Source of the DNA: a virus
Taxonomy: Duplodnaviria > Caudoviricetes
IMG/VR virus record: IMGVR_UViG_3300020109_000001
Span: 1-61,169 of that record
DNA length: 61,169 nt
Direction: 5' to 3' (one strand)
The position numbers and the translations under genes are program-made. Positions within the stretch are counted from its first letter, which is position 1; the number at the start of each line of letters is the position of its first letter. A model generated the notes under the pieces. It made no database searches and had not been told where the DNA came from. It was given only the letters and a program-made list of their open reading frames with translations. Positions 5,140 to 61,095 of this stretch are shown in pieces.

Positions 5140-5670
5140 ATGCAAAACAAATATGCTACCCATTTCGCCAGCCTCAGCAATGACGAGGCCGAGTACTTCG
5201 CAGATGCGATCGTCGGCGCTCTGAACCTGGAGCCCAAGCCCGAGCAGCAGTACAACGTGGCAAGTGCCCGGAGTGGTGGTGATCTGTATCTGGCGCTGGT
5301 CGCAGAAAATATCGACCACAAGACGGCGTGCATGTCGCTCGCCACGGACCCCAGCCCTATGGCCATCACCATCCTGGAGAAGGTCGTCGGCAACAAGATC
5401 ATCAAGGAAGTCCCGAAGACTGCTCCGGTCGGGAAAGTTCAGCGAGCCAAGGTCGAAGGAGCACCGAAGCCGAAACTGCTCAAGAATGACCCGCGCACCA
5501 TCCACAATATCAAGGAAGGTGCCAAGCGCCCCGGATCGGCGTCCTATGAACGGTACATGCTCTACAAGGAAGGTATGACGGTCACCGAGTTCATCGCTGC
5601 AGGTGGCACCGCTGGCGACATCAAGCACGACGTCAGCAAAGGCTTCATCACTCTGAAGGATCCTGAATAA
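5140..5670 (+). CDS. hypothetical protein with C-terminal 'KRxGS..Y.RY.LY.EGMTV.EF.AAG....D...D..KGFI' domain (paralog family of 3)
   Basis: Domain shared with 22099-22854 and 60748-61095. Confidence 0.8.
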   Translation: MQNKYATHFASLSNDEAEYFADAIVGALNLEPKPEQQYNVASARSGGDLYLALVAENIDHKTACMSLATDPSPMAITILEKVVGNKIIKEVPKTAPVGKVQRAKVEGAPKPKLLKNDPRTIHNIKEGAKRPGSASYERYMLYKEGMTVTEFIAAGGTAGDIKHDVSKGFITLKDPE

Positions 5671-5870
5671 TGCCAGGGGTTTTTGTAGCATTCGCTCTGC
5701 TCATCATCACGCTTATCAATGGTTGGCATTTTGATGAAATCGAGAAACGAATCGAAAATCTCGAGGAGCAAGTTTATGGGAATCCCTGACGGACTTCCTG
5801 TCAACGCTGGGCCGAGCATCTGGATGATGCTCGTGCTCGTCCAGGCAATGAAAGAGAAGGATGCGAAGAA

Positions 5871-6044
5871 ATGAAAGAAGTTCTCTTCAAGACCTTTGTC
5901 ATAGTGCTCGCGCTGAATGCAATCGCAGTGGTTGCAATGACTGTCGTGTTCACGATTGCGAGTGTCTTCGGTGAAGGAACAGGCCCAGGATGTCCTGGTG
6001 ATCCGGAGTGGCTGGGCTTTTGCTCGGAGGTACCAGTGAAATGA
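5871..6044 (+). CDS. small membrane protein (57 aa, MKEVLFKTFVIVLALNAIAVVAM...), not in the ORF track
   Basis: Hand translation; hydrophobic helix; ATGA overlap with 6041. Confidence 0.5.
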   Translation: MKEVLFKTFVIVLALNAIAVVAMTVVFTIASVFGEGTGPGCPGDPEWLGFCSEVPVK

Positions 6045-6313
6045 ACACCAAAGATCTCATCGAGACGATTCTTGATCAAGCAGTTCCCGGAGACATCACA
6101 CTCGGAGAACTCAAGAAATACGCACAGAGGTTGGACATGTGGAAACAAATCCCCAATGTCAAACCAGAGAATGTCGTCGTAAGATTTCTGCAAGGCGATA
6201 AGGAACTTCCAGATACGATGACCATTGGAGAGTTCCGACCACTACCAGACGGACAAATGAACATCACCATCTATCCTGGTGGTCTTGGCGTCGAAGAAAC
6301 GGAGGGTGTGTGA
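6041..6313 (+). CDS. hypothetical protein (90 aa, MNTKDLIE...)
   Basis: GGAGG SD before ATG 6041. Confidence 0.65.
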   Translation: MNTKDLIETILDQAVPGDITLGELKKYAQRLDMWKQIPNVKPENVVVRFLQGDKELPDTMTIGEFRPLPDGQMNITIYPGGLGVEETEGV

Positions 6314-6712
6314 ATGAGCGAGTTCAAATGCTTCCGTGTTCCTGATCGTGACGTTGATCCATCAGAAGACATGATCAACTGGCTCAACGAGCACGAGCGT
6401 TGGGAAGGTGACAGCGAAGGTATTGTTCTGTACGATGATGAGTATGGTGACAGTAACAACGTCTGTTTCCCTGGTGATTGGATCACGTCGATCGAGACAG
6501 CGGAGGGGAGGAAGCTTGTCCGTCTCCCCCGCAAGGGTCGCAAGATGCGTATGTGTCAGATGGATGATGACTCGGAGAAGGAACTCTGGGTCTGGGAACT
6601 GCCGAATGGTCAAGCTGTCTATCTGTACGATGGCCGTGAACCGCGACTCACGACTCTGAGTGTCGATAAGGACAGTAATCGTGGAATCTGGTTTCCAGGA
6701 GGTGAGAAATGA
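6314..6712 (+). CDS. hypothetical acidic protein (132 aa)
   Basis: GGAGG SD; abuts the previous gene. Confidence 0.7.
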   Translation: MSEFKCFRVPDRDVDPSEDMINWLNEHERWEGDSEGIVLYDDEYGDSNNVCFPGDWITSIETAEGRKLVRLPRKGRKMRMCQMDDDSEKELWVWELPNGQAVYLYDGREPRLTTLSVDKDSNRGIWFPGGEK

Positions 6713-6830
6713 TGGATAAGTTTTGGGCGCTCATTATATATTTGATCCATTGCGGATTTCTACTGCTTCTATTTCTGGGACTCGTTTATGGACTACTCCT
6801 GCTTTCGTCTCAAATAGTGGGAATCTTCAT

Positions 6831-7094
6831 ATGACCCAGAAGCCTGAACCCTTTGTCCCAACTGAAGAACAGATCCAGCGTGTTCTTCAGCAGACAGGCG
6901 GTGATCCACGCAAGCTGGCAATTGCATATCTCCGGGCGCAGAATCGTGCCCGTGAGAATGGACTTGGCTTTGGTGTGATGACTGACGTCAACGAGTTGTT
7001 CTTGCGAACAGTGATTGGAGATGAACCTGGAGCCGACAAAGCAATTGAACGAGCCAAGAGCCGCATCAAAACATTCAAGGAGGTAAAAGAGTGA
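6831..7094 (+). CDS. hypothetical protein (87 aa, MTQKPEPF...)
   Basis: Operon packing; ATG 6831 overlaps the stop of a 40-aa hydrophobic ORF (6712-6834). Confidence 0.55.
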   Translation: MTQKPEPFVPTEEQIQRVLQQTGGDPRKLAIAYLRAQNRARENGLGFGVMTDVNELFLRTVIGDEPGADKAIERAKSRIKTFKEVKE

Positions 7095-7345
7095 CCCGCG
7101 ACCCCATCTGGGATGATCTGAAACAGCATTCCAAAGAGAAGTTCGACAGCGACCGAAAGCGGTTCATGGAGCAAGCCATTGAGAACGATGACGGTGGTTG
7201 GACAAAGCACACCGAGTTCCATTGGTCACGGCAAGTGGCGGGGAAGAAGCTGGATTACTGGCCCAGTCGCAAGAAATGGCAATACGAAGGCAAGGTGAAG
7301 CGTGGCGATGTCCTTGCATTTATTCGCAGGAAGGAGAAGAAATGA
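7091..7345 (+). CDS. hypothetical phage protein (84 aa; KLDYWPSRKKWQY)
   Basis: GGAGGT SD; GTGA overlap. Confidence 0.7.
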   Translation: MTRDPIWDDLKQHSKEKFDSDRKRFMEQAIENDDGGWTKHTEFHWSRQVAGKKLDYWPSRKKWQYEGKVKRGDVLAFIRRKEKK

Positions 7346-7578
7346 TCCAGTGTCTTTTGCTCAGCGGGAGTCTCTTCCTGTTCTCGGCTGATGGTGATCG
7401 TGCCATTAATCTTGGAACAGCACAAGGTCTCTGGAAAGAGGATCACAAGGTAATTTCTCGAGTAACAGGTGGTGATGTCTTTGTTAATGGTCTTCCTGAA
7501 GACATGACTCTCTTTCAGATCATGCAGGAATGTGACAATGTTGCATGGGAAAACTATGATGAGGTTGTGAGCGACTAA
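7342..7578 (+). CDS. hypothetical protein (78 aa, MIQCLLL...)
   Basis: AAGGAG SD; ATGA overlap. Confidence 0.6.
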   Translation: MIQCLLLSGSLFLFSADGDRAINLGTAQGLWKEDHKVISRVTGGDVFVNGLPEDMTLFQIMQECDNVAWENYDEVVSD

Positions 7579-7603
7579 CTCTTTCCACAATCTAATCTAC
7601 CTG

Positions 7604-14096: not shown

Positions 14097-14516
14097 ACTC
14101 TTTTTAATGAAACGACCGTTTCTACCAATTGGTTGTTGTCTTCTCCTATTAGATTCTGCAACAGCTTTTCGAGTCTTATCCGACTGACGCTTACCGTGCA
14201 TTCCTCTGTGCCGACCTTTCTTCACCATATCTTGTGAGTTCTCTTTAGATGTTCCTGCGAAAAGATGCTCAGGGTTAACACAACTTGTATTATCACATGT
14301 GTGACAAGCTTTCTTTCCCGGAGGAAGTGGTCCTTTATATTTCTCATAGAACCAACGATTCGCACGAATCTTAGTTTTGTAACCATTACGAACAGCTGAG
14401 ATCAGTCCATAACCATCCTGATCTTTAGAGCCTTCCCAGGTCCAGCAGCCATTGTCCTCAACAAAGTACGACTGCTCAATTGGAACTAATTGTGTGACCT
14501 GTATATCGTGTTCCAT
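14094..14516 (-). CDS. HNH homing endonuclease (His-Cys type, NUMOD3-like tail)
   Basis: CWTWEG...GYG...[28 protein letters not shown]; GK.QS.KTR. Confidence 0.85.
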
Positions 14517-16503
14517 GTACTTTCTCCCATGCTTCGTCCCATGTTGCACCCCAATTATTTTCTTTATCAGCTTCTGCACTTCCCCATGTATCGCCGAACT
14601 CCATATCCACGACAACAGGAACTTCCAACTTCACAGTGTCACGCATGATCTCATAAGCACGCTGCGCATCTCGAGGATCGTTGAAACTATAATCAAGTTC
14701 GTCGTGCATTTGAAGCATCGGTACAAGGCCCGCTTGATATGAAGCACGCATCGCCAACTTTGTCATACGGGCAGCTGAACCTTGGATCAGTGAGTTCATT
14801 GCCTTGTGGGTCATGGCCCGCTTCAGGCGCTTCTTGTACCACGGGTGGTGCTCATCATGGATACGACTCTGTGCCTCTTCAATCTTCACAGCAGCCAAGA
14901 ACTCTCCGTCTTGGTAGCGAGGTTCCCAGAGTTCGTACCGGGACCGTGCACCATCCAGTAGTCGAATATACCCACGCTGATTTGCAATCCGACTACAGGC
15001 TTCCCCTAGCATCTTCACAAAAGGCATTTCACCATCGTATTGGTCCATGACTGCAGCTGCTTCTTCCAGGGTCATACCTGTCATCAGAGCAAACTTGGCA
15101 ACACCAGCACCGAATGCTTTGGCAAAGTTAACATCCTTGGCCTTCTTCCGTGGAAGCTTCGTCATCTCAGCGACGAGAGTATGGAAGTCGGTCCGTGGAT
15201 CATTCCGATACTTCGCAACTGCCTCAGCTGCACCTGGCAGATTCATGAGATATGCGAAGTGAACAATCAGTCGATATTCTTGTTGCGAGTAATCCAACGC
15301 GCCCCAGATGGTTCCCTTTTCAGGCTGAAAGATCTGACGAATTCGCCTTTTGATTCGAGGATTTCTTGAAGGCATTTGTTGGAGCGGAGGGTCGGAATAG
15401 GCAATTCGTGTGGTGCGTGTCCCTCCGTCATCACTTTTAGTCTGATGGATTTCGGCATGGATTCTTCCCCTGTGAGTGTATCCCTGGATGTAGTTTCCAA
15501 TGAACTTGTTCGAAGCCTCGTTCATCTGCTTTGACTGGACCACTAGATCAGGAAGCCAGTGATCAATCTTTGAGATGACATCAGATTCGAATGACGGGTT
15601 GCCTTTCGCTGTCCGAGGAACAGGAATTCCCTCTGACTCGAACGCTCGCATCAGGAACTGTGGTGAGTTGATGTCACCAATCGTGACTTCACGACCCACA
15701 GCAAGACGCCGGCTGATCTCACCAAGGATGTTGTTCCGATCAACAATGAACTGATGCTTGAGTTCTTCAGCATAAGTTGAGTTGACAGGAATACCAGTGC
15801 GACGCATATCAAGGACCATAGGAACAAGGTCCATCTCAAGTCGATACGCGGCTTCACAACCTTGGTTCACGATCTGAGGATAAAGAAGCTTGGCGGCTTC
15901 TAATGTTGCTACACCATCCTGCTCACCGTATGGTCCAACATACTTGGCTGGCATTCGCCACATGTCTTTCTTCGGATCACATCCATAGGCTTCAGCTGCA
16001 GCCCGAAGCAGATGCTCATCTTTTCCCTTGATCCCGTTCCTCTTACAGGTGTCATCAAGGTTGAATGTCTTCTCATATTCATGGAGCGTGAACTCCATAA
16101 TCATGGTGTCTTCAATATTCCTTGGAAGAGGGAGATCCCAACTTGTAGTGAGCCAGCCAAGGTCGTAGATAGCCCTGTGAAAAACCACTTGGCGATCAGA
16201 AAGGAAGAGTTCACGAAGAAAATCTCGTACTGGCCCTTGGTCCCAGTTCGAGGTCTCGGGATGCCGTATGGGATAATACCATGATCCGCGAGAAGTCGAT
16301 ATGCCAACACCAGCGATCCACCCCAAACCGTAGACCCAACCAGGTCCAATATCGTTTGCCAGTCCATCATCTTTGGTCTCGATGTCTACAGCTACGATTC
16401 TCTCTCCGGTTAGATCCGGAAGAGACCGAGGAACCTCCCAATTCGTTTCAGGAAGGAGGAATCCCATTGGGAGTTGGTCTGGATTTTTCTTCCGCTTGGA
16501 CAT
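14476..16503 (-). CDS. DNA polymerase family A with 3'-5' exonuclease domain
   Basis: VDIET exo I; LDYSQQEYR motif A; R..AK..NF...FG motif B; QMHDEL motif C; IQGSAA. Confidence 0.95.
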
Positions 16504-16742
16504 TCTAGTTCCTCGTTTTCAATCAGGATTACTTCAGAGACCAGATCACCAAGTCTCTTGCTTTTGTGCATGTGAGTTTGACCATTTGCATGGTAAAATG
16601 TATCACCACATTGAAACTCCCATGATTCCCAACCGAACCATGAACTCCTATGTCCTGCCGGTGCGATACGAACCATTGGACCGACAAGATTTCCTTGTCG
16701 GTCCGTGTAGTATGCACCCTCTTTCAAAGAGAGTTCTGACAT
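16410..16742 (-). CDS. hypothetical protein (L..GAYY.DRQG..VGPM...DLVSE)
   Basis: Fills the gap between neighbours; C-terminus overlaps the polymerase start. Confidence 0.55.
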   Translation of the reverse strand: MSELSLKEGAYYTDRQGNLVGPMVRIAPAGHRSSWFGWESWEFQCGDTFYHANGQTHMHKSKRLGDLVSEVILIENEELECPSGRKIQTNSQWDSSFLKRIGRFLGLFRI

Positions 16743-16745
16743 TGA

Positions 16746-17267
16746 TCAAATCTCTGGGGTGGTGTTGATCTTGTGAGGTACGACACCACTTCTCATCTCC
16801 CCGCTGAGCGGCTTATGCTTCGGATGGAGCGGGGGAGAGAGTTCTTTCTCCCAATCAATATATCCAGTGGAATGTGGTGTGCTATTCGGTGTGGTTCGGG
16901 ACTCAATATCTGGGTCTTGGTTCACGTATCCTGGACCAGGCTCCATGCTTGAGATCATCTTCCGATCAGCTGCTGCGAGAATATCTGCTTTCGCCTTGGC
17001 GCGGACCAGAAGCAGATACCCGATCAGGTCATCGATGTCGTCGATGATGTCTCCGTGATTCGTCTTCACCAGTTCGAAGATATCGTAGTGAGCAGAACTC
17101 ACCATATTCTCGATGCGGTCCCACTTCCGAGCCAGCATCATGAAGGCACCTGGACCACCACGCTTCTGCCAGGAACCACCGTATGCTTTCTCCTTCTCAT
17201 GGAGAGTGCTGACGATTCCACCTGCGATGGATTCGAGGTGCTTGAGCCACGGATATTGATCAGTCAT
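16746..17267 (-). CDS. nucleotide modification associated domain 1 (Nmad1, MazG-like all-alpha pyrophosphatase fold)
   Basis: EK.KAYGGSW.KRG..G..MMLARKWDR ... D.I.DL.GY.LL. Confidence 0.75.
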   Translation of the reverse strand: MTDQYPWLKHLESIAGGIVSTLHEKEKAYGGSWQKRGGPGAFMMLARKWDRIENMVSSAHYDIFELVKTNHGDIIDDIDDLIGYLLLVRAKAKADILAAADRKMISSMEPGPGYVNQDPDIESRTTPNSTPHSTGYIDWEKELSPPLHPKHKPLSGEMRSGVVPHKINTTPEI

Positions 17268-17803
17268 TTCTTTCCTCCAAGTTGACGTGCCATTTGAGCA
17301 CGATCGTTAAAGTAATCTGTATTGTATTGAGAGAACATATCCATATTCTTATTCATCAGTACTCGAACAGCTGGAATAATCTTCTCAGCGATTTGCCAAC
17401 CATAGTGAACATTTCCGAGACGCATCTCTTCTATTGCGAACTCAAGCATTTCAATCAGATCAGCGCATTTGATCTTCACAGCTTCTTCAGTTGAGACAAG
17501 TCCGTCATGGTACTTACCAGCGGAAACTTCAAATGCTGTTTCAGAATCAATCCGTTCTGCAACCTGCGCCAGATCAGGATTCGCTCGCTTCGCATCGAAA
17601 GGAATGTCACCTGTACCAAGTTCGCCAGCATCATGGTACACGATTGCCACAGTGACATTCGAAGGTGGTGATCCGAACATCTCGATATAGATACGCAGAA
17701 CGTTGAACGTGTGATGACCCACGTTCTGCTTCTGAACAGTTGGCCAGATATGGTAACGCTGGACGTCACCAATATGTCGAGAACTCAATCCGTTACTCAG
17801 CAT
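17264..17803 (-). CDS. HD-domain nucleotidase (YfbR-like)
   Basis: V.RYH...QNVGHH...YHDAGE..TGDIP...KCAD.IEM. Confidence 0.85.
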   Translation of the reverse strand: MLSNGLSSRHIGDVQRYHIWPTVQKQNVGHHTFNVLRIYIEMFGSPPSNVTVAIVYHDAGELGTGDIPFDAKRANPDLAQVAERIDSETAFEVSAGKYHDGLVSTEEAVKIKCADLIEMLEFAIEEMRLGNVHYGWQIAEKIIPAVRVLMNKNMDMFSQYNTDYFNDRAQMARQLGGKK

Positions 17804-18797
17804 GTTTATTGGTCCACTTTTGGAAACGACGATTGATCCACAGCTGCATAGCTAGTTGCCAGTCTGTGGCTTCGATACAACCCAACCACTCGTAACACTG
17901 TTCCCAGTTCTTCTCCTTGAAAGCCAGATGCGCCATCCAAGCAGGACGAGCCGTCAGATAGAACCACATGTTCTCATAATCGTGAGTATTCACTGGATCC
18001 ATCATGAACTTGTGGAGATCCTGGTCCCACTTGTCAGGATTGGACATAATCGACCAAGGTTCGACTCGACCAGTTCGATAGAAGTTCGTGTCAATCATGC
18101 CATGAATCGCAAACTTGTTTAGCACATCTGTGTAGGCGTGCCAGTTGTTACTCATCTGGTAGAACTTACCTACAGGTACACCAATTCTGCCAGCGAGGTA
18201 TTCCTGTAAGAACGTCATGTGTACCGCGTTGGCACCGTAAGCGCCATAAATCACGTCATTGGATCGAACACAGACGGTGATGTCCAAAGCACCATTCACG
18301 ATACGTGGATAGATGTGTGTGTTGCAGGGGACATCTTTCCACTGCTTCGCACCCAGGTTCTGGAAGTCGACGTACATATCCCACATTGAGATAACGACAC
18401 GTCGATCTTTCGGATCAGCTTTCAGTCTTTCAACTGTTCGATCCAGCTGGTCATAACCCGTCCAATCTCTCCAACGACGACCATAAGCACCATGAATATT
18501 TCCACCCTCTTCACCAAATCGACTTGAAAAGTCTCCCACAAATCGATCCAGCCAGCGACCATCCCGATCACCGTGCAACATCCACAAACACTCGAACAGA
18601 TGGAAGAACGGATTGGCGTCCCTATTCTCATCGAAGAGAACGCGCTCCATGGGTCGATCCGTGACAGTCATAACCGGGAAGGGGACAACCTTCACCTGAC
18701 CAGCCCGCGAATCCTCAATCACTCCATCTCGCTGGACGAAATGGAGTGCCTGAGGATAAAGATCGTTGATGTTGCGCCCACTCAGTACATATGTCAT
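17793..18797 (-). CDS. thymidylate synthase homolog, probable dUMP hydroxymethylase
   Basis: DANPFFH, DRR.VISMWD, DVPCN (catalytic Cys), RSND..YGAYGAN (Asn consistent with dUMP specificity), NNWHAY; modification-cluster context. Confidence 0.85.
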   Translation of the reverse strand: MTYVLSGRNINDLYPQALHFVQRDGVIEDSRAGQVKVVPFPVMTVTDRPMERVLFDENRDANPFFHLFECLWMLHGDRDGRWLDRFVGDFSSRFGEEGGNIHGAYGRRWRDWTGYDQLDRTVERLKADPKDRRVVISMWDMYVDFQNLGAKQWKDVPCNTHIYPRIVNGALDITVCVRSNDVIYGAYGANAVHMTFLQEYLAGRIGVPVGKFYQMSNNWHAYTDVLNKFAIHGMIDTNFYRTGRVEPWSIMSNPDKWDQDLHKFMMDPVNTHDYENMWFYLTARPAWMAHLAFKEKNWEQCYEWLGCIEATDWQLAMQLWINRRFQKWTNKHAE

Positions 18798-19612
18798 GCT
18801 CGGTCTCCTATCTCATACGCCTTCTTCCACTGAACGGTGGCCTCGACACGAGTGCCGAACTCACCACCGCCCTTGTTCTCCTTGACACGTGCGGACACGT
18901 AACCAGGATGCAAATCCATCAGCTTGTACACTGCTTGCTCTTGTAGGTCATGTGTGCGCCAGATCGAGCAACCACCCTCAGTGTTCGTTGCCTTCTGGCC
19001 CGTGGCCCAATAGACAGTTACACAAGTGAGACGCTTCCTGCGGAGGAGTTGTAAGGTGATGTCGAAATCCTCCATAACCGGAACCCGCCCATGTTCCAGT
19101 GAGAGAAACTCATCGACCGAGAAGGCGTTGGCACGCATCCCTCGATAGTGAGGTTGTACTGCTTCGCGACCTCCGAGGCCCAAGCGATTGTTTCCTTCTC
19201 GGGCACCCAAGGAGACTTGCGCATATCCAGAATCCAACAAGCTAATGACGTCATTGTACATGTCGACTGTTTCGTCATCTTCCGTGTACCTCAACTGCCA
19301 ATTGTCGGGTGCTCGACGGACCAGGAAGTTTACATCATCGTCGACCATCAGGATCTTCTTGTATCCACGCTTTCGCGCTTCAACGGCCATCTGCCGGCGC
19401 TTCTCTCCAATGTTCCAATAACCCAACATCATAACGTCATTAACGTGCTCAAGAATCTTCGGATCACGGTAACGCCCACCATCTTCAACGTGCGTGAACA
19501 TAAACGTGTGTTCACGAAGCTTCGGTGACAGACATTTGAGAGTGTCCCGGAATCCTAGCACCTGCTTGTGACGACCCCGAGAAGGAATCGCGATCATCAT
19601 ATCATTCGACAT
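18794..19612 (-). CDS. GT-A fold DNA-base glycosyltransferase (TAGT/GREB1/JGT-like)
   Basis: IAIPSRGR, IG.KR, MVDDD, MEDFD.TLQLL, EGGCS..RT; GAGGAG SD before ATG 19612. Confidence 0.8.
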   Translation of the reverse strand: MSNDMMIAIPSRGRHKQVLGFRDTLKCLSPKLREHTFMFTHVEDGGRYRDPKILEHVNDVMMLGYWNIGEKRRQMAVEARKRGYKKILMVDDDVNFLVRRAPDNWQLRYTEDDETVDMYNDVISLLDSGYAQVSLGAREGNNRLGLGGREAVQPHYRGMRANAFSVDEFLSLEHGRVPVMEDFDITLQLLRRKRLTCVTVYWATGQKATNTEGGCSIWRTHDLQEQAVYKLMDLHPGYVSARVKENKGGGEFGTRVEATVQWKKAYEIGDRA

Positions 19613-20051
19613 TTTCGGACTCCTCAAGTTTCCTGGTGATTCCCTCGAGATATTCATCCCCAGCAGGAACGTCAGTGCTTCCTGGAGCCGGCTCATCTTC
19701 TTTCCCCGGATATGTATCTGGAAACCATCCTAATGATCCATCCTGATCCATATCACCGTGCCAGAACTCGAAATTCGGAACAAGGATGCTCTTCCAATAA
19801 TCAGGATACTGGTTCTGTGGATGCTGTAGAATTAGATTTGGCTCGAATATAAGACCACGGCGAACAATCTCTCGAGCCATACAGTCTCCGATCATCATGA
19901 GATAGACCAGGTATGGCTTCCACTCAGAATCTTCAGCCTCCCCCGCCTGAATGTCTCGATGAAGATCACGAGCGTCACGAAAGTTGTCCAGAACGACGTT
20001 ATCCGGTAAAACCGCTGCACTGATTACAGGGTTTGGGAATGGTAGATACAT
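19602..20051 (-). CDS. divergent endonuclease V / pyrimidine-dimer glycosylase-fold protein, paralog of 9466-9882
   Basis: YLPF.....SA.VL and W..Y...L......MAREIVRRG align to FLPY.....SV.CL and W..H...L......IREWIRRG. Confidence 0.55.
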   Translation of the reverse strand: MYLPFPNPVISAAVLPDNVVLDNFRDARDLHRDIQAGEAEDSEWKPYLVYLMMIGDCMAREIVRRGLIFEPNLILQHPQNQYPDYWKSILVPNFEFWHGDMDQDGSLGWFPDTYPGKEDEPAPGSTDVPAGDEYLEGITRKLEESENVE

Positions 20052-20074
20052 CAGATTTCTCCTTCTCTTAGGGT

Positions 20075-20103
20075 ATTATACCCTGTCAAAAGGGCTGGCG
20101 CTA
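20075..20103 (-). promoter_or_regulatory. promoter TAGCGC-N17-TATAAT for the modification and polymerase operon
   Basis: ATTATA at 20075-20080, GCGCTA at 20098-20103; same -35 as at 28140. Confidence 0.65.
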
Positions 20104-20154
20104 CGGGGATCAGCGGGGAGAAGCGCTCGGTCGAAGTGTTTCATGGGGATGCTC

Positions 20155-20313
20155 CTAACCGAACAGAAAAATAATGAACGAGCCTGACGCAGCGACGAAC
20201 ATGGTAAAGATCACTGCGGACAACACAGAGGCAAGTTCGCTCGATCTGAACATTTTTACCCGATCCTTCAGCGGGATACGTTCGAGATAGATGCGCTTAC
20301 GGGGTGGGGTCAT
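20155..20313 (-). CDS. small membrane protein (52 aa, MTPPRKRIYL...), not in the ORF track
   Basis: Hand translation; TAAGGAG SD; C-terminal hydrophobic helix. Confidence 0.55.
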   Translation of the reverse strand: MTPPRKRIYLERIPLKDRVKMFRSSELASVLSAVIFTMFVAASGSFIIFLFG

Positions 20314-20334
20314 GTGGTTGCTCCTTAGAGGTGC

Positions 20335-20583
20335 TTAGATTTGTTTCTCGTCACCGTCAAGATATCGCTTGAAGTCGATCGTCCAAGGATATTCCTTCTG
20401 CATGTTCTTGAACTGTTCAGCAGTACCAACCCATGCATAGTTGCGGTCAGTTGTTTCGCCAAGGCAACTGTAATTGACGTATGTCCTGCTCTCAGCATTC
20501 CAGGCGATGTATTTCCTACCACCTGGAAATCGAGACTGAACAGCCCATTCGTTGTATTCCCTTTTCTTCTTCAGAGGTTTCAT
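20335..20583 (-). CDS. hypothetical protein (82 aa)
   Basis: ATGA overlap with the kinase gene. Confidence 0.65.
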   Translation of the reverse strand: MKPLKKKREYNEWAVQSRFPGGRKYIAWNAESRTYVNYSCLGETTDRNYAWVGTAEQFKNMQKEYPWTIDFKRYLDGDEKQI

Positions 20584-21527
20584 CGATACGTTCCTCGTGG
20601 CCTTCCTTCACCATTGTTTGCTCGCTGGTACTTGTCGAACTCGCATAGCGAGTGCTCGATCTCTCGCATCTCTAATGGACGCTCGGGCCAAGGCCAATTT
20701 TCAGTTGGTCTCGACATAACTCGAAGATCAAACATTTCTTTATTCCACTCTTCCTTCTTCTGAGTGAAATTCAGCTTCCGACCATGAAGTCTGTTTAGAC
20801 CACGCATCGCACCGGGTCCAGCATTGGCCCAGGTCATGATATCGGGAGCACGCTCCAAGGCCCGAGTGAAGCGGAGGTCGGTCACAACCTCATAGGCCAT
20901 GAAATCACCCAGGTAGCTGAACTTGCGAAGCCAGTCCCAGGCGTCTTGGAGAGTGACCGTGCAATTTGTATCAAACATGATTTCTGCACCTCCTCTCCAA
21001 CTGACATTGTCGATGAGGACACAATCACGTTCTACATTGTGTCGCGTGTATCGAAGTGGGTACTTATCCCTCCAGAAATGCTCCAAGGCCCAACACACAC
21101 CGTGCAGTTTTGTCATTCCGCTCGGAGTCTTGATGATGTAGGCACCTGTGACGAAGGGACCATGAGGACCAATATGCTTGAGCAAAGCATCCTTGATGAT
21201 CTGCCCATCACCAGACTTTCGGAACTCTTCATATGGATTATCTCCAACATAAAGATCATCGGTGTTGAACAATGCTTCACCACTCACAGTCCGATTGAAC
21301 CAACGGAACAGAACCGTCGCCAGAATGATGTCTTCTCGATTCCGGAGCGGATCACGAACATTCTCTCGGAACCACACAGTCGTGCGATCATCTTCACGAA
21401 ACACGTTCGTGAATTTGTAATAGTCGAGAATCTCATCCTTGGTCCAAGGACGAGGCTCCCCGGCCTGCTTCTTCAGGAAGATGCGGTAGCGTTCCTGGAT
21501 GAAATTGAAGAAGGGTGTGGGATCCAT
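20580..21527 (-). CDS. 5-hydroxymethyl-dU DNA kinase (aGPT-Pplase1 family)
   Basis: F...ER..I..KK.AG.P.PWT.D.IL..YKFTNVFREDDR, FRWFN, FMAYE.VTDL, GPGA.RGL, REIEHSLCEFDKY.R. Confidence 0.9.
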   Translation of the reverse strand: MDPTPFFNFIQERYRIFLKKQAGEPRPWTKDEILDYYKFTNVFREDDRTTVWFRENVRDPLRNREDIILATVLFRWFNRTVSGEALFNTDDLYVGDNPYEEFRKSGDGQIIKDALLKHIGPHGPFVTGAYIIKTPSGMTKLHGVCWALEHFWRDKYPLRYTRHNVERDCVLIDNVSWRGGAEIMFDTNCTVTLQDAWDWLRKFSYLGDFMAYEVVTDLRFTRALERAPDIMTWANAGPGAMRGLNRLHGRKLNFTQKKEEWNKEMFDLRVMSRPTENWPWPERPLEMREIEHSLCEFDKYQRANNGEGRPRGTYR

Positions 21528-21530
21528 GAT

Positions 21531-21914
21531 TCAATCCTTCCTCTCAATGCTGAAAGACCAACGCCAGTCTTGTTCCATCATCTCAGCAACTCTTTCACCA
21601 ATCTTACTTCCAAACTCACCAGCTTGAATTGCTGCAACAACCTTCGCCTTGACAGCAGCATTATGCTCGACCATGTACTCTCGCACAGCTTCCCGAGCCG
21701 CATTGCGAAGTTCATGACCGACCAACCAATCAAGATATGAAACTTCTTTGACACCATACTCATGCGAAGTCTTCGGATGACCTGTGTTTTCACTTACAGG
21801 TTTGTTGAAGGCTGCAGCAATCAACTTCTCAACCATTTCAGGTGTTGTGTTGAATGCTTCGATCACCTTCGCCTGGATTGTTGTCTTCAAGAGTGCTTCG
21901 ATTTGTTGGTCCAT
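21531..21914 (-). CDS. hypothetical protein (127 aa)
   Basis: GGAG SD and promoter upstream. Confidence 0.75.
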   Translation of the reverse strand: MDQQIEALLKTTIQAKVIEAFNTTPEMVEKLIAAAFNKPVSENTGHPKTSHEYGVKEVSYLDWLVGHELRNAAREAVREYMVEHNAAVKAKVVAAIQAGEFGSKIGERVAEMMEQDWRWSFSIERKD

Positions 21915-22098: not shown

Positions 22099-22854
22099 TC
22101 AGGCAGGGTTCTTGATCGCGATGAAGTTCTTCTGGACGTCGAACTCCAGGTCACCACGAGTCAGGCCGGCAGCAATGGCCTGTTCGACAGTCATGCCATT
22201 GGTGTAGAGCGCGAACCGCTCAGCCGATTTCGAACCAGCACGCTTCGGATTGTTCTCGGCGCCATAGGGATTGCCATCCTTGTCGGCGAGCAGCGTGATG
22301 ATCGACTCGTTCTTGTACTTGGGCTCACGGACCGGAGGCTTGCGCTTCGTGGTACCTTTTTCGGTGGTCGCTTCCGAAGCAGGAGCAGCATCGCTCACGA
22401 TTTGACCAGCATTGGTCTCGGTGGTCGCAGCAGCTTCGGTGTTCTTCGGGTCTTTAGCCATCTTTCTGGTCTCCAGGTTTGGTGCGAGACGATCTCGCTT
22501 GATGATTTCAAAAATGGTTTCTGCCTCAGTGGGTAGAGGTTTGCACTTATCGAGCATCTTTTGCCAAAGAAGCCCGCGATAGCGATCCATGGTGAGGATC
22601 CAGTTGTCCCATCCTTTAGATTTGAAGTCTACAAGAATCTCCGAACGTTCAACTGGATCAACCAGAACTGACAACAACCAGGGAAATTCTCGACGAGTCC
22701 AATTCCTCTCGATGAAATCTGGGCCTTCACAGATCACATCCCCGTACTGGATAAGAGGGTGGGTATATGCTGACTTCCAATCAGGAAACCACCAGAAATC
22801 ACCTTCCCCATTCCGGGTAACTGCAACAACTCCCTTTTCCGCCGCTTCAACCAT
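22099..22854 (-). CDS. hypothetical protein with C-terminal NPKR.GS...RFALY..GMTV domain (paralog family of 3)
   Basis: NPKRAGSKSAERFALYTNGMTVEQAIAAGLTRGDLEFDVQKNFI. Confidence 0.8.
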   Translation of the reverse strand: MVEAAEKGVVAVTRNGEGDFWWFPDWKSAYTHPLIQYGDVICEGPDFIERNWTRREFPWLLSVLVDPVERSEILVDFKSKGWDNWILTMDRYRGLLWQKMLDKCKPLPTEAETIFEIIKRDRLAPNLETRKMAKDPKNTEAAATTETNAGQIVSDAAPASEATTEKGTTKRKPPVREPKYKNESIITLLADKDGNPYGAENNPKRAGSKSAERFALYTNGMTVEQAIAAGLTRGDLEFDVQKNFIAIKNPA

Positions 22855-45300: not shown

Positions 45301-48300
45301 TTTCTTCAGCAGCAACTGCGATCGAACGATCGATAGCATTTTGAATTGCTTCTTTGCTGTATTTGCGCTCGCTCTGAGCAACCTTGTCGATAACCGACTT
45401 AGCAATCTCACGACGCTCAATCTCTTCATCAGAAAGACCAATCAGAGACTTTCTGTAATCCAGTTCCTTATGGATATCAGCCAGAATATCCTTCTGTGCT
45501 TGGCCCTTGTCTTTTGCGCCCTTCTTAGATTTCTTCGCACCCTTTTCTTCCTCCTTATGGAGTTTCTCGGCAGCATTAACAGCACCTTCATATCCATCTT
45601 GGACATGCTTGAGTGCGAGAGAAATCTGACCAGCGTTCGGGATGACATTCCCGAGCATGTTACCAATAACACCAAGTCCCTGACCGGCAGCTTGGCCCGC
45701 TCCACCAATACCGCCTAAACCCGGTATAGCGCCCGCGATAGCTGAGACGCCTTTGAGAAGCCCTGAAAATGCCCGTAGGCCAGCCAACAACTTCGCCAAG
45801 AGCGAAGCCATCATATCAGAGGCTCCACCAATCTCACCCTTCATAATCCCGAAGGCGTTCGCAAGATTGTTAGCGGCACCAACAGAAGTCAAAATGAGAT
45901 TCAATTGTTGTTGAGAAGCACCCAGTCCCTCAAGTTGAGTCTTGAGGGTCTCAGCTTCTTGACGCTGACGCTCCCGAACAACACTGATGTGATCTTGACC
46001 GTACTGAAGCGCCAGACGATCGAGACGAATACGATCCTCAGTCTCTTTCGTGATCTGCTTGATCTCATCTTGGTTTTCACGCATCTTCTCAAGAAGATCG
46101 TTGGCACCATCAACCAGCTTTTCCCATGCGCCAGCAAAAGTCTTGGTTGCTTCAGCACGAAGTTCCACAGAACGAGCCAGATCATATTCGAGCATCTTCT
46201 GCTCGACATACTGTTTAGTGATGTCAACGTTGAAGTCTTTTTGGGCAGCAAAAGCAAGAGCAGTCTGACGAGCCTGTTCACGCTTCAGACGCTCAACTTC
46301 AATTGACTTCTCACCATACCTCAGAATTGCTTGAGACATAGCTATCTGAGACTCTGCAGCAAATTTTGCTTGAGCAGCCTCTTGGATGGCCTTATCAGTC
46401 ATCCCTTCTGTAGAAGTGGCAACCTTACCCCAGGTCCCAGCCAGGGACTTGAGGATTGCGTCAGCCATTCCAAGATAACCAGTTTGTTCAGCAAGTTGAC
46501 CGTTCAAACGATCGACTTCTGCCTGGGCTTCGCGAATTGCATCGGTCTCGAACAACTGAAGTGAAGGACCAACACCAAAGTCGAGTTCAGTCCACCACTT
46601 TGCAGCTGCCAGTCGTTCCTCTGCAACAGCCAATGCTGCTTTGATATCGGCAATGGCTGCATCTGCTTGTGTCTTTAGACCAACAGCTGTATCTAGATTC
46701 CGCTGGTTCTCGAAAGCACGCAGCTTGTTTTGGAAGTCTTCCTGCGAAGCTGTTGCAGTCTTGATTGCGGCATCATATTCCTGAACCAGTTCTCGGTTCC
46801 GGCTGATCTGCATCCCGAATCCGACCAGTGAGGCCAGAAGCATGGCGGGGAGGAAGGTCTTCATCGCCAGTGATGCAGCTTGGACAACCTTCGTAAACGA
46901 TGCGACAGCACCACCAGCAGCAGTCACAGCACTTAGAAGTTGACGTCCGAAGTGCAGAGTCGCCAGTGACGCTGCAACCAGACCGAGGAAACGCAGGTCC
47001 CCCGCCAGTTCGCGAACCGTTCCAGCATTCTCAACCACAGAACGGCTGAAGCTGACCATACTCTCCGACACTCGCATGATCCCGCGCGAAAGTGTTTGCG
47101 AGAAACCAACTGCGTGGTCCATTTCACCGATTGACACCATGAAGGTGTCAGCCATCACAGTCAGTGCCTGGCTGAGAGTCGGCACAGTTTTGCCGAATGT
47201 CTTTTCCAGGTTATCCGATTGAGACAGCAATGCGTCAAAGAATTTCTTCGAAGACAGTTCTCCGGCCAGCATCATCTGGCGGAGTTTCATCACCGATCCG
47301 CCGGTTTCCTCAATCCCTCGTGCAACAGCAACCAGGATAGGATAACCACCTTCCAACAGCGAGTTGAATTCTTCTGCGCGGACCGTACCCATACCGATGG
47401 CCTGAGCCAACTGGAGCAGAGCACCGCGAGTAGAAATTGTTGCACCACCTTGCTGAGCAAGAGCAAGACCAACGTTCTTCGTGAATTGAAGAATCTGATC
47501 TTGCGAGGCACCAAGTTCTTTGGCTGCCATCGTGGTTTTCTGATAGATTTTCGCGAGTTCGTCGACAGGAGATCGGGTCGTACGAGCAATGTCTTGAATT
47601 TCCCGCAGTTTCTCGGCGGCTTGTCCACCTTCAAAACCCAGGACTTTCAAAATGTTCGTAAGTTCGGTGTACTTATTCAGCGAGTTGTAAACTGCGAATA
47701 CACCAATACCTGCAATCAATCCATTAATCGACAGGAGGGAACCATGGATACGAGACAGTGTCCCGAGAAGTCCACGTCCCGAACGGTTATTCCTGTCTTC
47801 AATGCGTTGTGCTTCACGGAGACGCTCGGCTTCAGCACGACGGAACATTGCGTCCATGCGAGCCTGTTCACGCATCATCGATGCAACACGACGTCCTTCA
47901 GCCTGCTCAGCACGGGCAGCGGCAGCAATTTCTCTTTGAGCCTGACGTTCAGCTGCAGCAGCGGCACGATCACGTTCGGCTTGAAGGCGAAGAGAGTTGC
48001 GATAATTGCGACGGAAAGCGGCTTCTTCAGCATCAGCTGCCCGACGAGCGATCGATTCTTGTTTCGCAGCAGCTTGGGCTGCGCGATTGGCTTCTTGTTC
48101 CCGAGCCTTTTGGATCGTCAGTAGACGCTGGAACTGTTGACGCGCTGTGCGATCTTCGACATCCTGTTGACGACGAGAAGCAGCAATCTGACGTTCCCGT
48201 TGACGTTCTTCCTGCAACGCAGCTTGGTCACGCGCTTTCTGCGCCGCAAGAATGCGACGATACTCAGAACGCATCTGACGATCAGCAACAGATTCTGCAC

Positions 48301-48694
48301 GAGCAGCGGCAGCAGCACGCTGTTGTTCAACCCGAACTTCTTGCGCAGCTGCCTGTTCACGCGCACGCTGAAGTTGGAGAGAGCGGGAGTACTGCTGGCG
48401 GACAGACTTGTCTTCCTGCTGACGGATCGCTTCTACACCACGCGCAGCGTTGATGATCAAAGAGGCCCGCGACTTCTCAGCCCGAGCCTCTTCTGCTTTC
48501 ATGCGTGCGATAGACTGACTGGCTTGCGCAATCTTATTCGCGGCCATGCTGTATTCACCAGCCAGACGACGACTGAAAAGCGCAGATGTTGCAGCAGTCT
48601 TCTGCATAGAGTCGGCAAGTTGATCGACTGAACGCTTCCCCCGATCGATATCGGAGGTGTCGAGTTCCATGTCCATATCAACGATGTCGACCAT
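42389..48694 (-). CDS. tail tape measure protein (2101 aa)
   Basis: LLQLAQA.G.G.VRAEEFNSLLE tape-measure domain; Ala/Gly-rich helices; six 49-aa repeats near the C-terminus. Confidence 0.95.
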   Translation of the reverse strand: MVDIVDMDMELDTSDIDRGKRSVDQLADSMQKTAATSALFSRRLAGEYSMAANKIAQASQSIARMKAEEARAEKSRASLIINAARGVEAIRQQEDKSVRQQYSRSLQLQRAREQAAAQEVRVEQQRAAAAARAESVADRQMRSEYRRILAAQKARDQAALQEERQRERQIAASRRQQDVEDRTARQQFQRLLTIQKAREQEANRAAQAAAKQESIARRAADAEEAAFRRNYRNSLRLQAERDRAAAAAERQAQREIAAAARAEQAEGRRVASMMREQARMDAMFRRAEAERLREAQRIEDRNNRSGRGLLGTLSRIHGSLLSINGLIAGIGVFAVYNSLNKYTELTNILKVLGFEGGQAAEKLREIQDIARTTRSPVDELAKIYQKTTMAAKELGASQDQILQFTKNVGLALAQQGGATISTRGALLQLAQAIGMGTVRAEEFNSLLEGGYPILVAVARGIEETGGSVMKLRQMMLAGELSSKKFFDALLSQSDNLEKTFGKTVPTLSQALTVMADTFMVSIGEMDHAVGFSQTLSRGIMRVSESMVSFSRSVVENAGTVRELAGDLRFLGLVAASLATLHFGRQLLSAVTAAGGAVASFTKVVQAASLAMKTFLPAMLLASLVGFGMQISRNRELVQEYDAAIKTATASQEDFQNKLRAFENQRNLDTAVGLKTQADAAIADIKAALAVAEERLAAAKWWTELDFGVGPSLQLFETDAIREAQAEVDRLNGQLAEQTGYLGMADAILKSLAGTWGKVATSTEGMTDKAIQEAAQAKFAAESQIAMSQAILRYGEKSIEVERLKREQARQTALAFAAQKDFNVDITKQYVEQKMLEYDLARSVELRAEATKTFAGAWEKLVDGANDLLEKMRENQDEIKQITKETEDRIRLDRLALQYGQDHISVVRERQRQEAETLKTQLEGLGASQQQLNLILTSVGAANNLANAFGIMKGEIGGASDMMASLLAKLLAGLRAFSGLLKGVSAIAGAIPGLGGIGGAGQAAGQGLGVIGNMLGNVIPNAGQISLALKHVQDGYEGAVNAAEKLHKEEEKGAKKSKKGAKDKGQAQKDILADIHKELDYRKSLIGLSDEEIERREIAKSVIDKVAQSERKYSKEAIQNAIDRSIAVAAEEKAWEKVKGAIGEIADAWGDYVASGFSDFKEFASSVLNVFKNMLSEMIATAARNRIMISMGMDPLSSALGLAGAPVRKGILGKALGTWGAAAGGGVLGGLSGVWSGISSGFSSGGILGALSGGLSSSISGIGAGLSMGGIAGITSAIGAAVPIIGAVVGVVSLAKKMFGRKLKDTGIEATFSMAEGIAAHTYKFYKGGWFRSDKTKWSEAPDELTNPLGQAFSEIGKTVTDFSKIMKLNSASLKGVEFEMKFSTKGMSQEEIQERLMEGMEEYSELLVKKVIPNIGRYRQGEETAVETMQRLATSLSTVNVFMKDLGLRTFDLSVAGAAAASKFADLFGGLNEFTQAASFYYENFYSLQERAKNAQKSFNGALKELGIKTVPQTTEQFRKLVDRLNAAGRTNAVAELMKLGPAFIEMLNMQKELAGETDKTNDIMQERYDLETRLLTAQGNIAELRRRELAALHPSNRALLRQIWAVEKQNEINDQRKNLEQQLLQVQGKTYALRQLELAALDPSNRALQRRIWQIEEENRVAAERETLERALLTAQGNTAELRRLELAALSPANRALQKQIWAVEKANAIAQEREGLERQLLQLQGNTAALRKLELAALDPANRALQRQIWHLEDLAKIEDERKGLEQQWLELTENNAELRRLELAQLHPSNRALQQRIWALEKTKAIEAERKDLEEQLLEVLGRTGTLRQRELLTLDASNRALQQQIWAIQDAQAAVTEAENAARNAANAERERINTLKSTSDAIRQLADTTMEAAFATGEAQRLAAERQLRIALETGKVWDTSLQNLAERAAAVDVNNFGSYTDFAIASARAASLLKSVSEEQAEQAKGAEQRLEEALKKYGLQEETVLSLTDALKNLDKAIAKLANAEAGIFDSPLSDPSGSAIPGAPVVPGQVGVVNPTTTLIQEVKGLRDEVKQLRQENNSGNAQIARQAKQSADIQRKWDVDGTPPVRPEVSVP

Positions 48695-59050: not shown

Positions 59051-59074
59051 GTATTATTTTTTGGACGACGATAA

Positions 59075-59563: not shown

Positions 59564-59838
59564 CGCTTTAGACCCTTTTCACGAAGGAATTCGACACATT
59601 CGGGGAATGTTGTGGGCCAATTCTTGGCTTTCCTGTGTTTATTACTCAGATACATGTACTCGTGACCGAGATGCAAGGCAACTTCGTATTGGAGCACGTT
59701 TATACTGAGATCCTCTAAAGGTCGGGAAGATTGGAACGTTAGTGAGGCGTCAATCTTCTTCTCGATTTTGGCGCGGTCCTTGGCCTCTTCTTCGGCGGCG
59801 ATGTCGAGTGGGTGACGCTCGTGGTCGTATAGTTTCAT
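59560..59838 (-). CDS. hypothetical protein (92 aa)
   Basis: ATGA overlap; promoter upstream. Confidence 0.65.
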   Translation of the reverse strand: MKLYDHERHPLDIAAEEEAKDRAKIEKKIDASLTFQSSRPLEDLSINVLQYEVALHLGHEYMYLSNKHRKAKNWPTTFPECVEFLREKGLKR

Positions 59839-59880
59839 GGTCCGTGGGTCCTGGATCAGAAAGTTAAAGCCATATTGGAT

Positions 59881-59909
59881 ATTATACCGCCTTATTACTT
59901 TTTAGTAAA
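59881..59909 (-). promoter_or_regulatory. promoter TTTACT-N17-TATAAT
   Basis: AGTAAA at 59904-59909, ATTATA at 59881-59886. Confidence 0.8.
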
Positions 59910-59969
59910 GGGTGTTTTTAGCGAGTAATTGTCGCGTAACCATAAGTTATTGGTATTGGTTCTTAAAAC

Positions 59970-60280
59970 CCGTCTAATACCCTGTTGCGCCCCTATAGTA
60001 AAATCAACCTTTGTCAAATTACTTTATTGGATTTTACCTCGGATGCGATGTGTGTACGTATTCGCTCGTACGTACGTAAGGACCGGAAATAAGTAATAAT
60101 CCAATAATACAATAATACAGGACTGAATACGCGATGAATACTCTCGTAATCAACTTATTAGATTCTTATTGCATTTTTATTACGACGCGGCGGAAATAAT
60201 AATGCACCTAAAATCAATGCCGCTGGAAGAGCGCGAGCGGGGGAAGAGAAATTCGGATTCGCTCTCATATGTAGGTGCAC
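59970..60280 (+). other. AT-rich non-coding element, copy B (candidate replication origin)
   Basis: Colinear blocks shared with 28190-28495. Confidence 0.55.
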
Positions 60281-60411
60281 GTTATGGTTGATGCGGTTGT
60301 GCTTGTGGTGTTGGTGGATGTTGTAAGTCTGGTGAAGTCGAGGAAGTGTGTCCTCCCCCGCTGCTTCCTGACTTGGTCGTGAAAACGTCCGGGACGTTAA
60401 AACGGGCCGTA

Positions 60412-60490
60412 GGCGGCTGAAACGGGCTTTTAGGCTATACGGGTAGCGGGCGGTTACTGTGCGACGGCTAAAAACGCTGCTCCGGGGCTG
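60412..60490 (+). repeat. composite dispersed element, copy 5
   Basis: GCTATACGGGTAGC 60434, GCTGCTCCG 60476. Confidence 0.6.
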
Positions 60491-60747
60491 GAGAGGGTCG
60501 CAAAATAGGCGGGTTTAGCCCTATAGGCGGGCGGGCGGCGGAACCTACGATCAAATCCCGTTCCAAAAATTTGCAGCGATTTTTGTGTGTACGAATGCCG
60601 TTTTCATCTGTCATTCCACTTTTGGGAATTTGCACGCTGTCTCAGACACAGCTGCACCGCCGGGGGTAGGGGGTGGGGGGCGGTACCTCCACCGCGATAG
60701 TTTAACGTTAAACTAATCGGGCCGCCGGTTAGCGGCCCGTTAGCGCC

Positions 60748-61095
60748 TTAACCTTCAATAACGATAAAGTTTCTTTCACTATCAAACTTAAGGTCTGCGG
60801 TAGCTACGCCCGGTTTATCGCCCTTAGCGGTACAAGCGGCGATATAGTCCTTAACGGTCATACCATCTTTATAAAGGGCGAAGCGCGTCGCGGCCTTACC
60901 GCGTTTAGGGTTTAGCTTAACCGCGCCGGTTTCCTTATCCGCGATTTCCGGGTTAAGGCGAATTACGCGGTTATCCGCGTATAGCCGGTTAGCGGCCATT
61001 TTACGCCCGAAAACGACGGGCGCGAAAGTAACCGGGTTAGCGGCGACGGTTTCGGTAGCGGTTTCGACGGCGGGTTTTTTAGCGTTAGCGGTCAT
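60748..61095 (-). CDS. TG/CA-depleted early gene; NPKR...RFALYKDGMTV domain (paralog family of 3)
   Basis: Homologous to 5140-5670 and 22099-22854; TAGGATAAG SD; own promoter at 111-139. Confidence 0.85.
   Translation of the reverse strand: MTANAKKPAVETATETVAANPVTFAPVVFGRKMAANRLYADNRVIRLNPEIADKETGAVKLNPKRGKAATRFALYKDGMTVKDYIAACTAKGDKPGVATADLKFDSERNFIVIEG

Follow-up and report, generated by a model that had tools for sequence, protein, structure and literature searches.

What does a small domain do that one phage keeps at the C-terminal ends of three dispersed genes, in a genome that also encodes a thymine-modification cassette? The question is raised by the virus record IMGVR_UViG_3300020109_000001 of IMG/VR (Duplodnaviria; Caudoviricetes), a complete viral record of 61,169 bp that was analysed over its whole length and is referred to here as the window. 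It derives from a lake-water phage; among the 11 sequencing runs listed in which it occurs, none is an RNA run, and those that contain the full sequence are lake-water metagenomes. We find that the domain belongs to a large family that nearly always accompanies thymine-modification genes in the complete genomes sampled, and we consider the chances about even that it is a new winged-helix module with which thymine-modifying phages tether a variety of proteins, each with its own task, to DNA. The three genes, here called p1, p2 and p3, are laid out as follows.

5140 to 5670, plus strand: p1, 176 amino acids (aa), with an N-terminal part of ~110 aa, a K/P/A-rich linker and the domain in approximately the last 60 aa (5488-5667).
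22099 to 22854, minus strand: p2, 251 aa, globular over residues 1-125, with a disordered linker at 129-164 and the C-terminal domain at ~172-251 (~22102-22341).
60748 to 61095, minus strand: p3, 115 aa, isoelectric point (pI) 9.6, with the domain at 60751-60936.

The three copies are true paralogs. They share a C-terminal domain of ~50-75 aa, with 17 invariant columns over 60 in the alignment of the three; p2 searched against its own genome finds p1 at E 3.9e-12 and p3 at 4.1e-8, and a profile of the domain run over the six frames of the window recovers p1, p2 and p3 only (next match E 3.3), and thus the window holds exactly three copies. An earlier reading of this DNA, made from the letters alone (the sequence-only reading), had described three paralogs of one domain at these coordinates and on these strands, and the peptides it quoted are indeed the C-termini of the three open reading frames (ORFs). 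It was also right that the domain is always C-terminal (3/3 window proteins) and that the N-termini are unrelated, as we find for p1 and p2 (BLASTP E 25). Its description of the linkers as Lys/Pro/Ala-rich fits p1 but not p2, in which the linker is T/A/E-rich and predicted to be disordered, with a predicted local distance difference test (pLDDT) score under 50 over the linker residues. An N-terminus in common with p1 is found in ~13 family representatives and one in common with p2 in ~35, while p3, whose domain has 8 residues inserted after helix 2 and before helix 3, represents a third type that is seen in at least 3 other phage genomes. Since each type forms a separately conserved subfamily across genomes, p1, p2 and p3 are best regarded as old, separately maintained paralogs, and a recent (tandem) duplication is ruled out as the source of the copies.

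The family is large and, as had been claimed, uncharacterised. The three proteins matched no Pfam family at E<=1, no NCBIfam family at E<=0.1 and no PDB sequence at E<=10, and the single PHROG match (E 0.29) is to a group of unassigned function. By contrast with these nulls, a profile of the three copies searched against 1.84 billion proteins found 3476 cluster representatives at E<=1e-3, 853 of them at <=1e-10. In the best 150 matches, one C-terminal copy is the rule (118 proteins), 17 proteins have two copies and 15 have one copy elsewhere; most complete genomes encode 2-5 copies. Neighbours of the domain in the Protein Atlas are 95-100% viral, in clusters that are all unnamed, and a Protein Atlas search by features returned no named cluster and weak structural rows. 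Cellular genomes yielded only two 16-residue partial matches, both in Bacteroidota metagenome-assembled genomes, which we did not count as members; the family appears to be essentially viral in what was sampled.

Other searches added few relatives and no names. A word-indexed protein search with p1 returned 9 close relatives only, none with a name, a cluster look-up of 10 member proteins gave no informative names or taxa, and single-protein scans with members P0034, P0108 and P0072 found no viral contigs. Neither tblastn of p2 and p3 against 50,697 GenBank phage records (E<=1e-3) nor megablast of 20 kb of the window gave a match; tblastn is evidently too insensitive for this family, because the profile later found gp18 of phage PhiJL001. 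The module is undescribed in the literature that we searched on hypermodification, TAGT/aGPT-Pplase and PhiJL001, in which supplementary gene-cluster figures may label the ORF. Two of these articles contain no mention of DNA-binding, winged or helix-turn-helix proteins (PMC8989533) and no use of the term ‘DNA binding’ (PMC5889632).

Structure prediction, which the sequence-only reading had suggested as a check, gives the domain a winged-helix-type fold. AlphaFold models were made of a 60-aa construct of the domain alone (pLDDT 88) and of p2, including its longer C-domain at residues 172-251 (pLDDT ~97). In both, the predicted layout is of three short helices between an opening and a closing strand, with helices at 18-23, 32-37 and 42-50 of the construct, and in p2 a strand at 185-188, helices at 209-214, 223-228 and 233-241 and a strand at 245-248. 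The conserved motifs run in the order strand, NPKRxGS, helix (..RFALY), GMTV, helix, helix (.aD..wD) and GFI strand, and the predicted models contain the three-helix core and beta sheet of the winged-helix/helix-turn-helix fold. The best VIA-align matches of the domain alone are nearly all winged helices, led by SelB (Z 4.5), BlcR (4.2), MexR (4.1) and the winged helix of PriA (4.0), with PerR, MecI, ORC, MCM and Z-alpha among the further rows. For the longer C-domain, the best matches include GATOR1 (8fw5_C, Z 6.5, root-mean-square deviation 2.4 over 66 aligned residues), Rv2067c (8hkr_B, Z 6.0) and the PriA winged helix (Z 5.0), together with recognition elements (RREs) for ribosomally synthesized and post-translationally modified peptides. 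The N-terminal domain of p2 (1-125) is also modelled confidently, with no clear structural match. The models support a domain of the winged-helix-type class, a fold that would by itself leave the ligand unspecified.

Since the top match of the isolated domain is the winged helix of SelB that binds selenocysteine insertion sequence (SECIS) RNA, the module might bind RNA, in which case its small carriers would be post-transcriptional regulators. However, many DNA-binding winged helices score less than 1 Z unit away from SelB, no fusion to an RNA-acting domain occurs among the proteins scanned, and the genomic context is one of DNA replication and modification; we consider RNA binding very improbable.

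The proteins to which the module is fused point to DNA. One relative is an SNF2 helicase with a C-terminal copy of the domain (P0163), another joins one copy to a Pyr_excise pyrimidine-dimer glycosylase domain of endonuclease-V-like type (P0178), and P0061 joins two copies to PHD fingers, which are weakly detected in P0093 as well. P0061, P0093 and P0002, on metagenome contigs of 3-4.6 kb, are eukaryote-like proteins with long acidic and lysine-rich tracts and two module copies; thus, eukaryote-like PHD-finger proteins that carry the domain, the eukaryotic side of the check that had been proposed, do exist. P0025 has an HEAGH motif beside the domain (read from the sequence; no family match). 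Among the ten largest matches, 9/10 consist of two N-terminal copies and a C-terminal PF03496 ADP-ribosyltransferase domain. Many small members have basic, histone-H1-like lysine/alanine/proline tails adjoining the module, and 127 of 167 domains have a positive net charge (mean +2), with a mean of +3.5 in the preceding 50 aa.

These partners also bear on a different use of the same fold, in which the module would be a protein- or peptide-docking winged helix that brings its carriers to a common hub, either a host protein such as RNA polymerase or one of the phage, such as the modification enzymes or the SNF2 helicase. Docking would agree with the matches to peptide-binding RRE/PqqD types (TbtB Z 5.0, McbB 4.2, PqqD cluster with a template-modelling score of 0.59) and to the protein-binding winged helices of GATOR1/SEA (Z 6.5 and 5.6), with the acidic residues conserved in the would-be recognition helix, with the tandem copies ahead of ADP-ribosyltransferases, enzymes that in T4 act on RNA polymerase, and with the tight adjoining of the domain gene to SNF2 and modification genes. 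However, the SNF2 helicase, DNA glycosylase and PHD fusions are all proteins that act on DNA or chromatin, many members have basic histone-H1-like K/A/P tails beside the module, and the eukaryote-like members would need the same partner. We regard docking as unlikely.

In our samples, the distribution of the domain associates it with thymine-modification genes. Three samples of domain-bearing IMG/VR records were each searched for PF18723, a marker of thymidine hypermodification.

Sample 1, seeded with the window's own copies: PF18723 in 11/21 records, and in 5/5 of those at least 90% complete.
Sample 2, seeded with ADP-ribosyltransferase fusions: PF18723 in 4/16 records, and in 4/4 of those at least 90% complete.
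Sample 3, seeded with p1-type relatives: PF18723 in 13/50 records, and in 2/3 of those at least 90% complete.

Together, PF18723 is found in 28/87 domain-bearing records and in 11/12 of those that are at least 90% complete, although genes of this type are rare: they occur in 95 of the 50,697 GenBank phage records (~0.2%) and at no fewer than 576 loci among 2.9 million IMG/VR contigs. The sole complete PF18723-negative genome (111 kb) has a thymidylate-synthase (TS)-family gene 2 kb downstream of the domain gene, and all five of the large PF18723-negative records, this one included, have such a gene 2-3.5 kb downstream on the same strand; in one PF18723-negative lineage, a P-loop kinase lies between the domain gene and the TS-family gene. 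Gene order recurs as well, in the form PolA - SNF2 - domain - (TAGT) - PF18723 - TS - HD. The domain ORF is upstream of PF18723 on the same strand in 10/10 loci that hold a PF18723 gene and abuts the end of the SNF2 helicase gene in 13 loci, with the same order on metagenome contigs, and one domain-bearing copy lies directly upstream of the PF18723 cassette, as p2 does. The ADP-ribosyltransferase fusions adjoin head and neck genes, outside the replication block. The domain-bearing genomes are 42-82 kb, and a homologue of the window's terminase is present in only 1/9 complete genomes tested, which indicates that they do not form one tight lineage.

The association runs strongly in one direction. 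When we looked from the side of PF18723, 23/80 of the best records have the domain, as do 11/28 complete (at least 90%) PF18723 phages. Of 11 cultured PF18723 phages, one carries it, as PhiJL001 gp18, directly upstream of gp19, the PF18723 homologue. Within the 28 complete PF18723 genomes, a TAGT-type glycosyltransferase is found in 7/11 with the domain and in 2/17 without it (Fisher p 0.010, uncorrected for relatedness).

Several results weigh against a DNA tether. With respect to the fold, Foldseek searches of the PDB with both models gave nothing at E<=0.001, and all the structural matches are weak, the best Z values (4.5-6.5) being in the range that VIA-align calls common, below distinctive; the fold class also holds RNA binders (SelB) and peptide binders (PqqD/RRE, TbtB, McbB); the would-be recognition helix has near-invariant Asp residues, D44 and D48, instead of basic ones; and the domains of p1 and p2 have almost no net charge (0 and +1), with p2 as a whole acidic. 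With respect to distribution, all the co-occurrence samples were seeded from the window's relatives, the domain is absent from 17/28 complete PF18723 phages and from M6, PaMx11, PhiW-14, Pam3, RSL1 and five other cultured phages, and it travels in a PolA-SNF2-domain-TS block, so that part of the association may be due to linkage and shared descent. The absence from most PF18723 phages indicates that the module plays an accessory role, confined to some thymine modifiers, and lies outside the core chemistry.

If linkage were the whole explanation, the module would be an ordinary non-specific DNA-binding or nucleoid-type domain, and its co-occurrence with modification genes would stem only from a replication module inherited within one broad aquatic phage group. 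The conserved block could move as a unit, and both the many PF18723 phages without the domain and the seeding of the samples are as this explanation would have it. It fits poorly, however, with the presence of PF18723, a gene of ~0.2% of GenBank phage records, in 11/12 complete domain genomes, with the spread of genome sizes (42-82 kb) and the sharing of the window's terminase by only 1/9, and with the dispersed copies and structural-module ADP-ribosyltransferase fusions that lie outside the replication block in the same genomes. We judge it to be quite unlikely. The narrower suggestion of a nucleoid-like protein suits p3 (pI 9.6) and not p1 (7.8) or p2 (5.7). The broader proposal of a DNA-binding module gains from the predicted winged-helix-type fold, the fusions to DNA enzymes and chromatin readers and the co-occurrence, and loses from the fact that the domain is dispensable for the pathway.

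Among known proteins, the commonest fold matches are DNA-binding winged helices such as those of PriA, MarR/MexR, Fur/PerR and BlaI/MecI, which resemble the module in the predicted three-helix core and small two-stranded sheet and are likewise attached to helicases and regulators. The module differs from them in that it has no Pfam helix-turn-helix or winged-helix match at E<=1, is shorter (~50-75 aa), reaches Z values of only 4-6.5, forms its sheet from an N-terminal and a C-terminal strand, and has two conserved Asp in the third helix. A precedent for a phage DNA-binding protein tuned to its own hydroxymethyluracil (hmU) DNA is TF1 of SPO1, the subject of Grove et al. 1996 and Jia et al. 1996 (both cited in PMC3969353) and a member of the HU family that reportedly prefers such DNA. 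TF1 is a single abundant protein of HU fold, whereas the module has a different, winged-helix-like predicted fold, 2-5 copies per genome and many fusions; identity with an HU-type (TF1) or DVNP nucleoid protein was rejected for lack of a Pfam match, and HU also by the different predicted fold. HARE-HTH (PF05066) is a small winged helix-turn-helix domain that occurs both in chromatin proteins of eukaryotes and in settings of phage and restriction genes, and has been proposed to read modified bases; p1, p2 and p3 do not match it in Pfam at E<=1, and the resemblance is one of idea only. Injected effectors sit beside head and neck genes, and the relatives with a C-terminal PF03496 domain that adjoin such genes recall the T4 Alt-type ADP-ribosyltransferases and phage ‘polyvalent’ virion proteins, whereas p1, p2 and p3 have no catalytic domain. 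In the literature searched, we found no description of tandem N-terminal module copies on ADP-ribosyltransferases. ParB-dependent phage thymine dioxygenases, as described in the available part of PMC13229309, are an earlier case of a thymine-modifying enzyme that requires an accessory protein able to bind DNA, with both a different fold and a different enzyme.

If the module is a winged-helix tether, the DNA that it holds would most likely be the phage's own modified DNA. p2, as a member of the replication/modification module, would probably deliver its N-terminal domain to DNA that is being replicated or has just been modified; p3 is a small basic protein, its gene being the first on a leftward arm in which the terminase and head genes follow; and p1 belongs to a third, separately conserved type. 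Elsewhere, the same module would tether an SNF2 helicase, an endonuclease-V-like glycosylase and virion-type ADP-ribosyltransferases. Replacement or decoration of thymine fills the major groove with bulky groups, and to our knowledge how the replication, packaging and regulatory proteins of such phages hold this DNA has hardly been studied beyond SPO1 TF1. The thousands of relatives, the near-confinement to thymine modifiers in our samples and the fusions make the module a concrete candidate for a ‘self-DNA handle’, and the cultured carrier, PhiJL001 gp18, makes a test feasible. Even if it were only a generic DNA tether, the size and novelty of the domain family would merit an entry in the databases.

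A bolder version of the tether, in line with the suggestion in the sequence-only reading of a reader of modified T but in our view unlikely, would have the module specialised in reading modified thymine (hmU that is glycosylated or otherwise derivatised). According to the abstract of PMC3141245, DB-JBP1 is a helix-turn-helix variant that reads glucosyl-hydroxymethyluracil, with specificity given by Asp525 in the DNA-binding helix, and is a domain of 160 residues with a ‘helical bouquet’ fold. The module likewise has two near-invariant Asp in its third helix and is enriched in TAGT-bearing phages; it differs from DB-JBP1 in its length of 50-75 aa, we found no sequence relation between them, and DB-JBP1 is absent among the listed fold matches. 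By analogy, the two Asp might contact the adduct as Asp525 does. If the module were such a reader, these phages would tell their own DNA from that of the host and could thereby direct to it proteins as different as a helicase, a repair glycosylase, small regulators and the injected ADP-ribosyltransferases, and the eukaryote-like PHD proteins with two copies would read the same base in the chromatin of protists that contain hmU or J. Such a reader could in addition serve to detect bases derived from hmU.

The cassette beside p2 is the window's own link to this chemistry, and its members are as follows.

17264 to 21914, minus strand: thymine-modification cassette, downstream of p2 on the same strand.
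21531 to 21914, minus strand: orf127, the first gene after p2.
20580 to 21527, minus strand: PF18723 HMUDK_hel (Pfam match), aGPT-Pplase1-type gene.
18794 to 19696, minus strand: TAGT-like glycosyltransferase.
17793 to 18797, minus strand: thymidylate-synthase-family enzyme.
17264 to 17803, minus strand: YfbR-like HD 5'-deoxynucleotidase.

A family A DNA polymerase lies further along the same strand after these genes, so that PF00303, PF18723, PF12917, PF20691 and PF00476 fall in one minus-strand block (14476-21527). The block has the composition of a thymidine-hypermodification cluster, with a TS-family gene of deoxyuridine monophosphate hydroxymethylase-like type, a PF18723/aGPT-Pplase-type gene and a nucleotidase beside the DNA polymerase, and the order of the cassette is the same as in the thymidine-hypermodification clusters of PaMx11, Pam3 and PhiJL001. 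The gene at 20580-21527 is a homologue of PaMx11 gp50 and PhiW-14 gp72, a type of protein named aG/PT-PPlase1 in a table of PMC5889632. The P-loop 5-hydroxymethyldeoxyuridine (5-hmdU) kinase is instead PaMx11 gp49 and M6 gp54 (Table 1 of PMC8989533). A search of the window with PaMx11 gp49 gives no match (E<=1), Walker A motifs in plausible window genes are limited to those of the UvrD helicase and the primase, and Pfam scans of the cassette found no aGPT-Pplase2-type transferase. Thus, the statement that one copy lies just upstream of a 5hmdU kinase operon holds for the position of p2 relative to the PF18723 helical-domain gene, but that gene is not a P-loop kinase and none was found; ‘kinase operon’ is imprecise and ‘thymine-modification operon’ is fair. 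Because a P-loop kinase and an aGPT-Pplase2 are not detected in the cassette, the thymine derivative may differ from those of M6 and PaMx11.

Transcription signals around the three genes include the following.

22861 to 22889, minus strand: sigma-70-like site TTTACA-17-TAAATT just upstream of p2 (consensus match only).
22095-22078 and 22007-21982, minus strand: two terminator-like hairpins between p2 and the modification operon.
60718 to 60739, minus strand: 9-bp G+C-rich hairpin directly 3' of p3.

A second promoter-like site follows the hairpins of p2, ahead of the modification operon. Positions 1-127 of the window are identical to 61043-61169, an exact 127-nt terminal repeat that fits the assembly overlap of a circular or circularly permuted genome; therefore the window is best read as a circle, and the region upstream of p3 continues at window position 128. 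The start codon of p3 falls within this repeat. Read by eye across the assembly joint, p3 is preceded by TTTACT-17-TATAAG, and the promoter scan found no promoter-like site in the 440-nt gap upstream of p1. Separate promoters, as proposed for each copy, are thus plausible in the case of p2 and p3; for p1 the scan gives no match.

One copy had been singled out as a TG-free gene. This is p3: its coding strand contains a single CA where 25.6 would be expected, equivalent to 1 TG on the plus strand. The observed/expected ratio for CA on this strand (0.04) is the lowest among all ORFs of at least 80 aa, and the protein contains no His or Gln. The gene and its leader form a wider island.

60701 to 61100, both strands: TG/CA-poor island including p3 and its leader, with 0-1 TG and 1-6 CA per 200 nt and TA raised to 17-23.

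Elsewhere in the scanned stretch, TG is mostly 7-25 per 200 nt. The closest p3 orthologue (L025, 1766-2101) is partly depleted (CA 9 versus 25.4 expected, TG 6 versus 16.3), and more distant p3-type genes are not TG/CA-depleted. If thymine modification needs a TG context, the p3 island would stay unmodified.

Two other stretches are skewed in composition. At 59701-60450, part of a mostly non-coding stretch between p3 and the packaging genes, CA alone is scarce on the plus strand (0-9 per 200 nt), with TG normal or high. At 4359-4760, the plus strand is TG-poor (1-5 per 200 nt) and CA-rich (21-28), and a minus-strand ORF at 4455-4772 would be the second most CA-depleted ORF (3 versus 11.3 expected); the skew and this ORF suggest that the real gene there may run along the minus strand and diverge from p1. 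With at most 1 mismatch allowed, the motif TATACGGGTAGCG is matched 6 times, versus 0.09 expected, at 4992, 7701, 7810, 11585, 31163 and 60436, and the copy upstream of p1 contributes to a hairpin, GGTAGCG...CGCTACC. Repeated CATTACC(T/C)CAACTAATAATCA-like units, possibly a packaging or replication site, lie at 594-749 beside the assembly joint, in the long non-coding region that precedes p3.

Two structural genes have features of their own. The portal protein (PF06381; 55011-56918, minus strand) has at its C-terminus an Acb1 anti-CBASS domain (residues 487-634; match to PF23474 at E 4.3e-36), which, if so, would be an anti-defence nuclease built into the portal. A 2101-aa ORF (42389-48694, minus strand), presumably the tape-measure protein, contains six 147-nt (49-aa) tandem repeats at 43145-43954.

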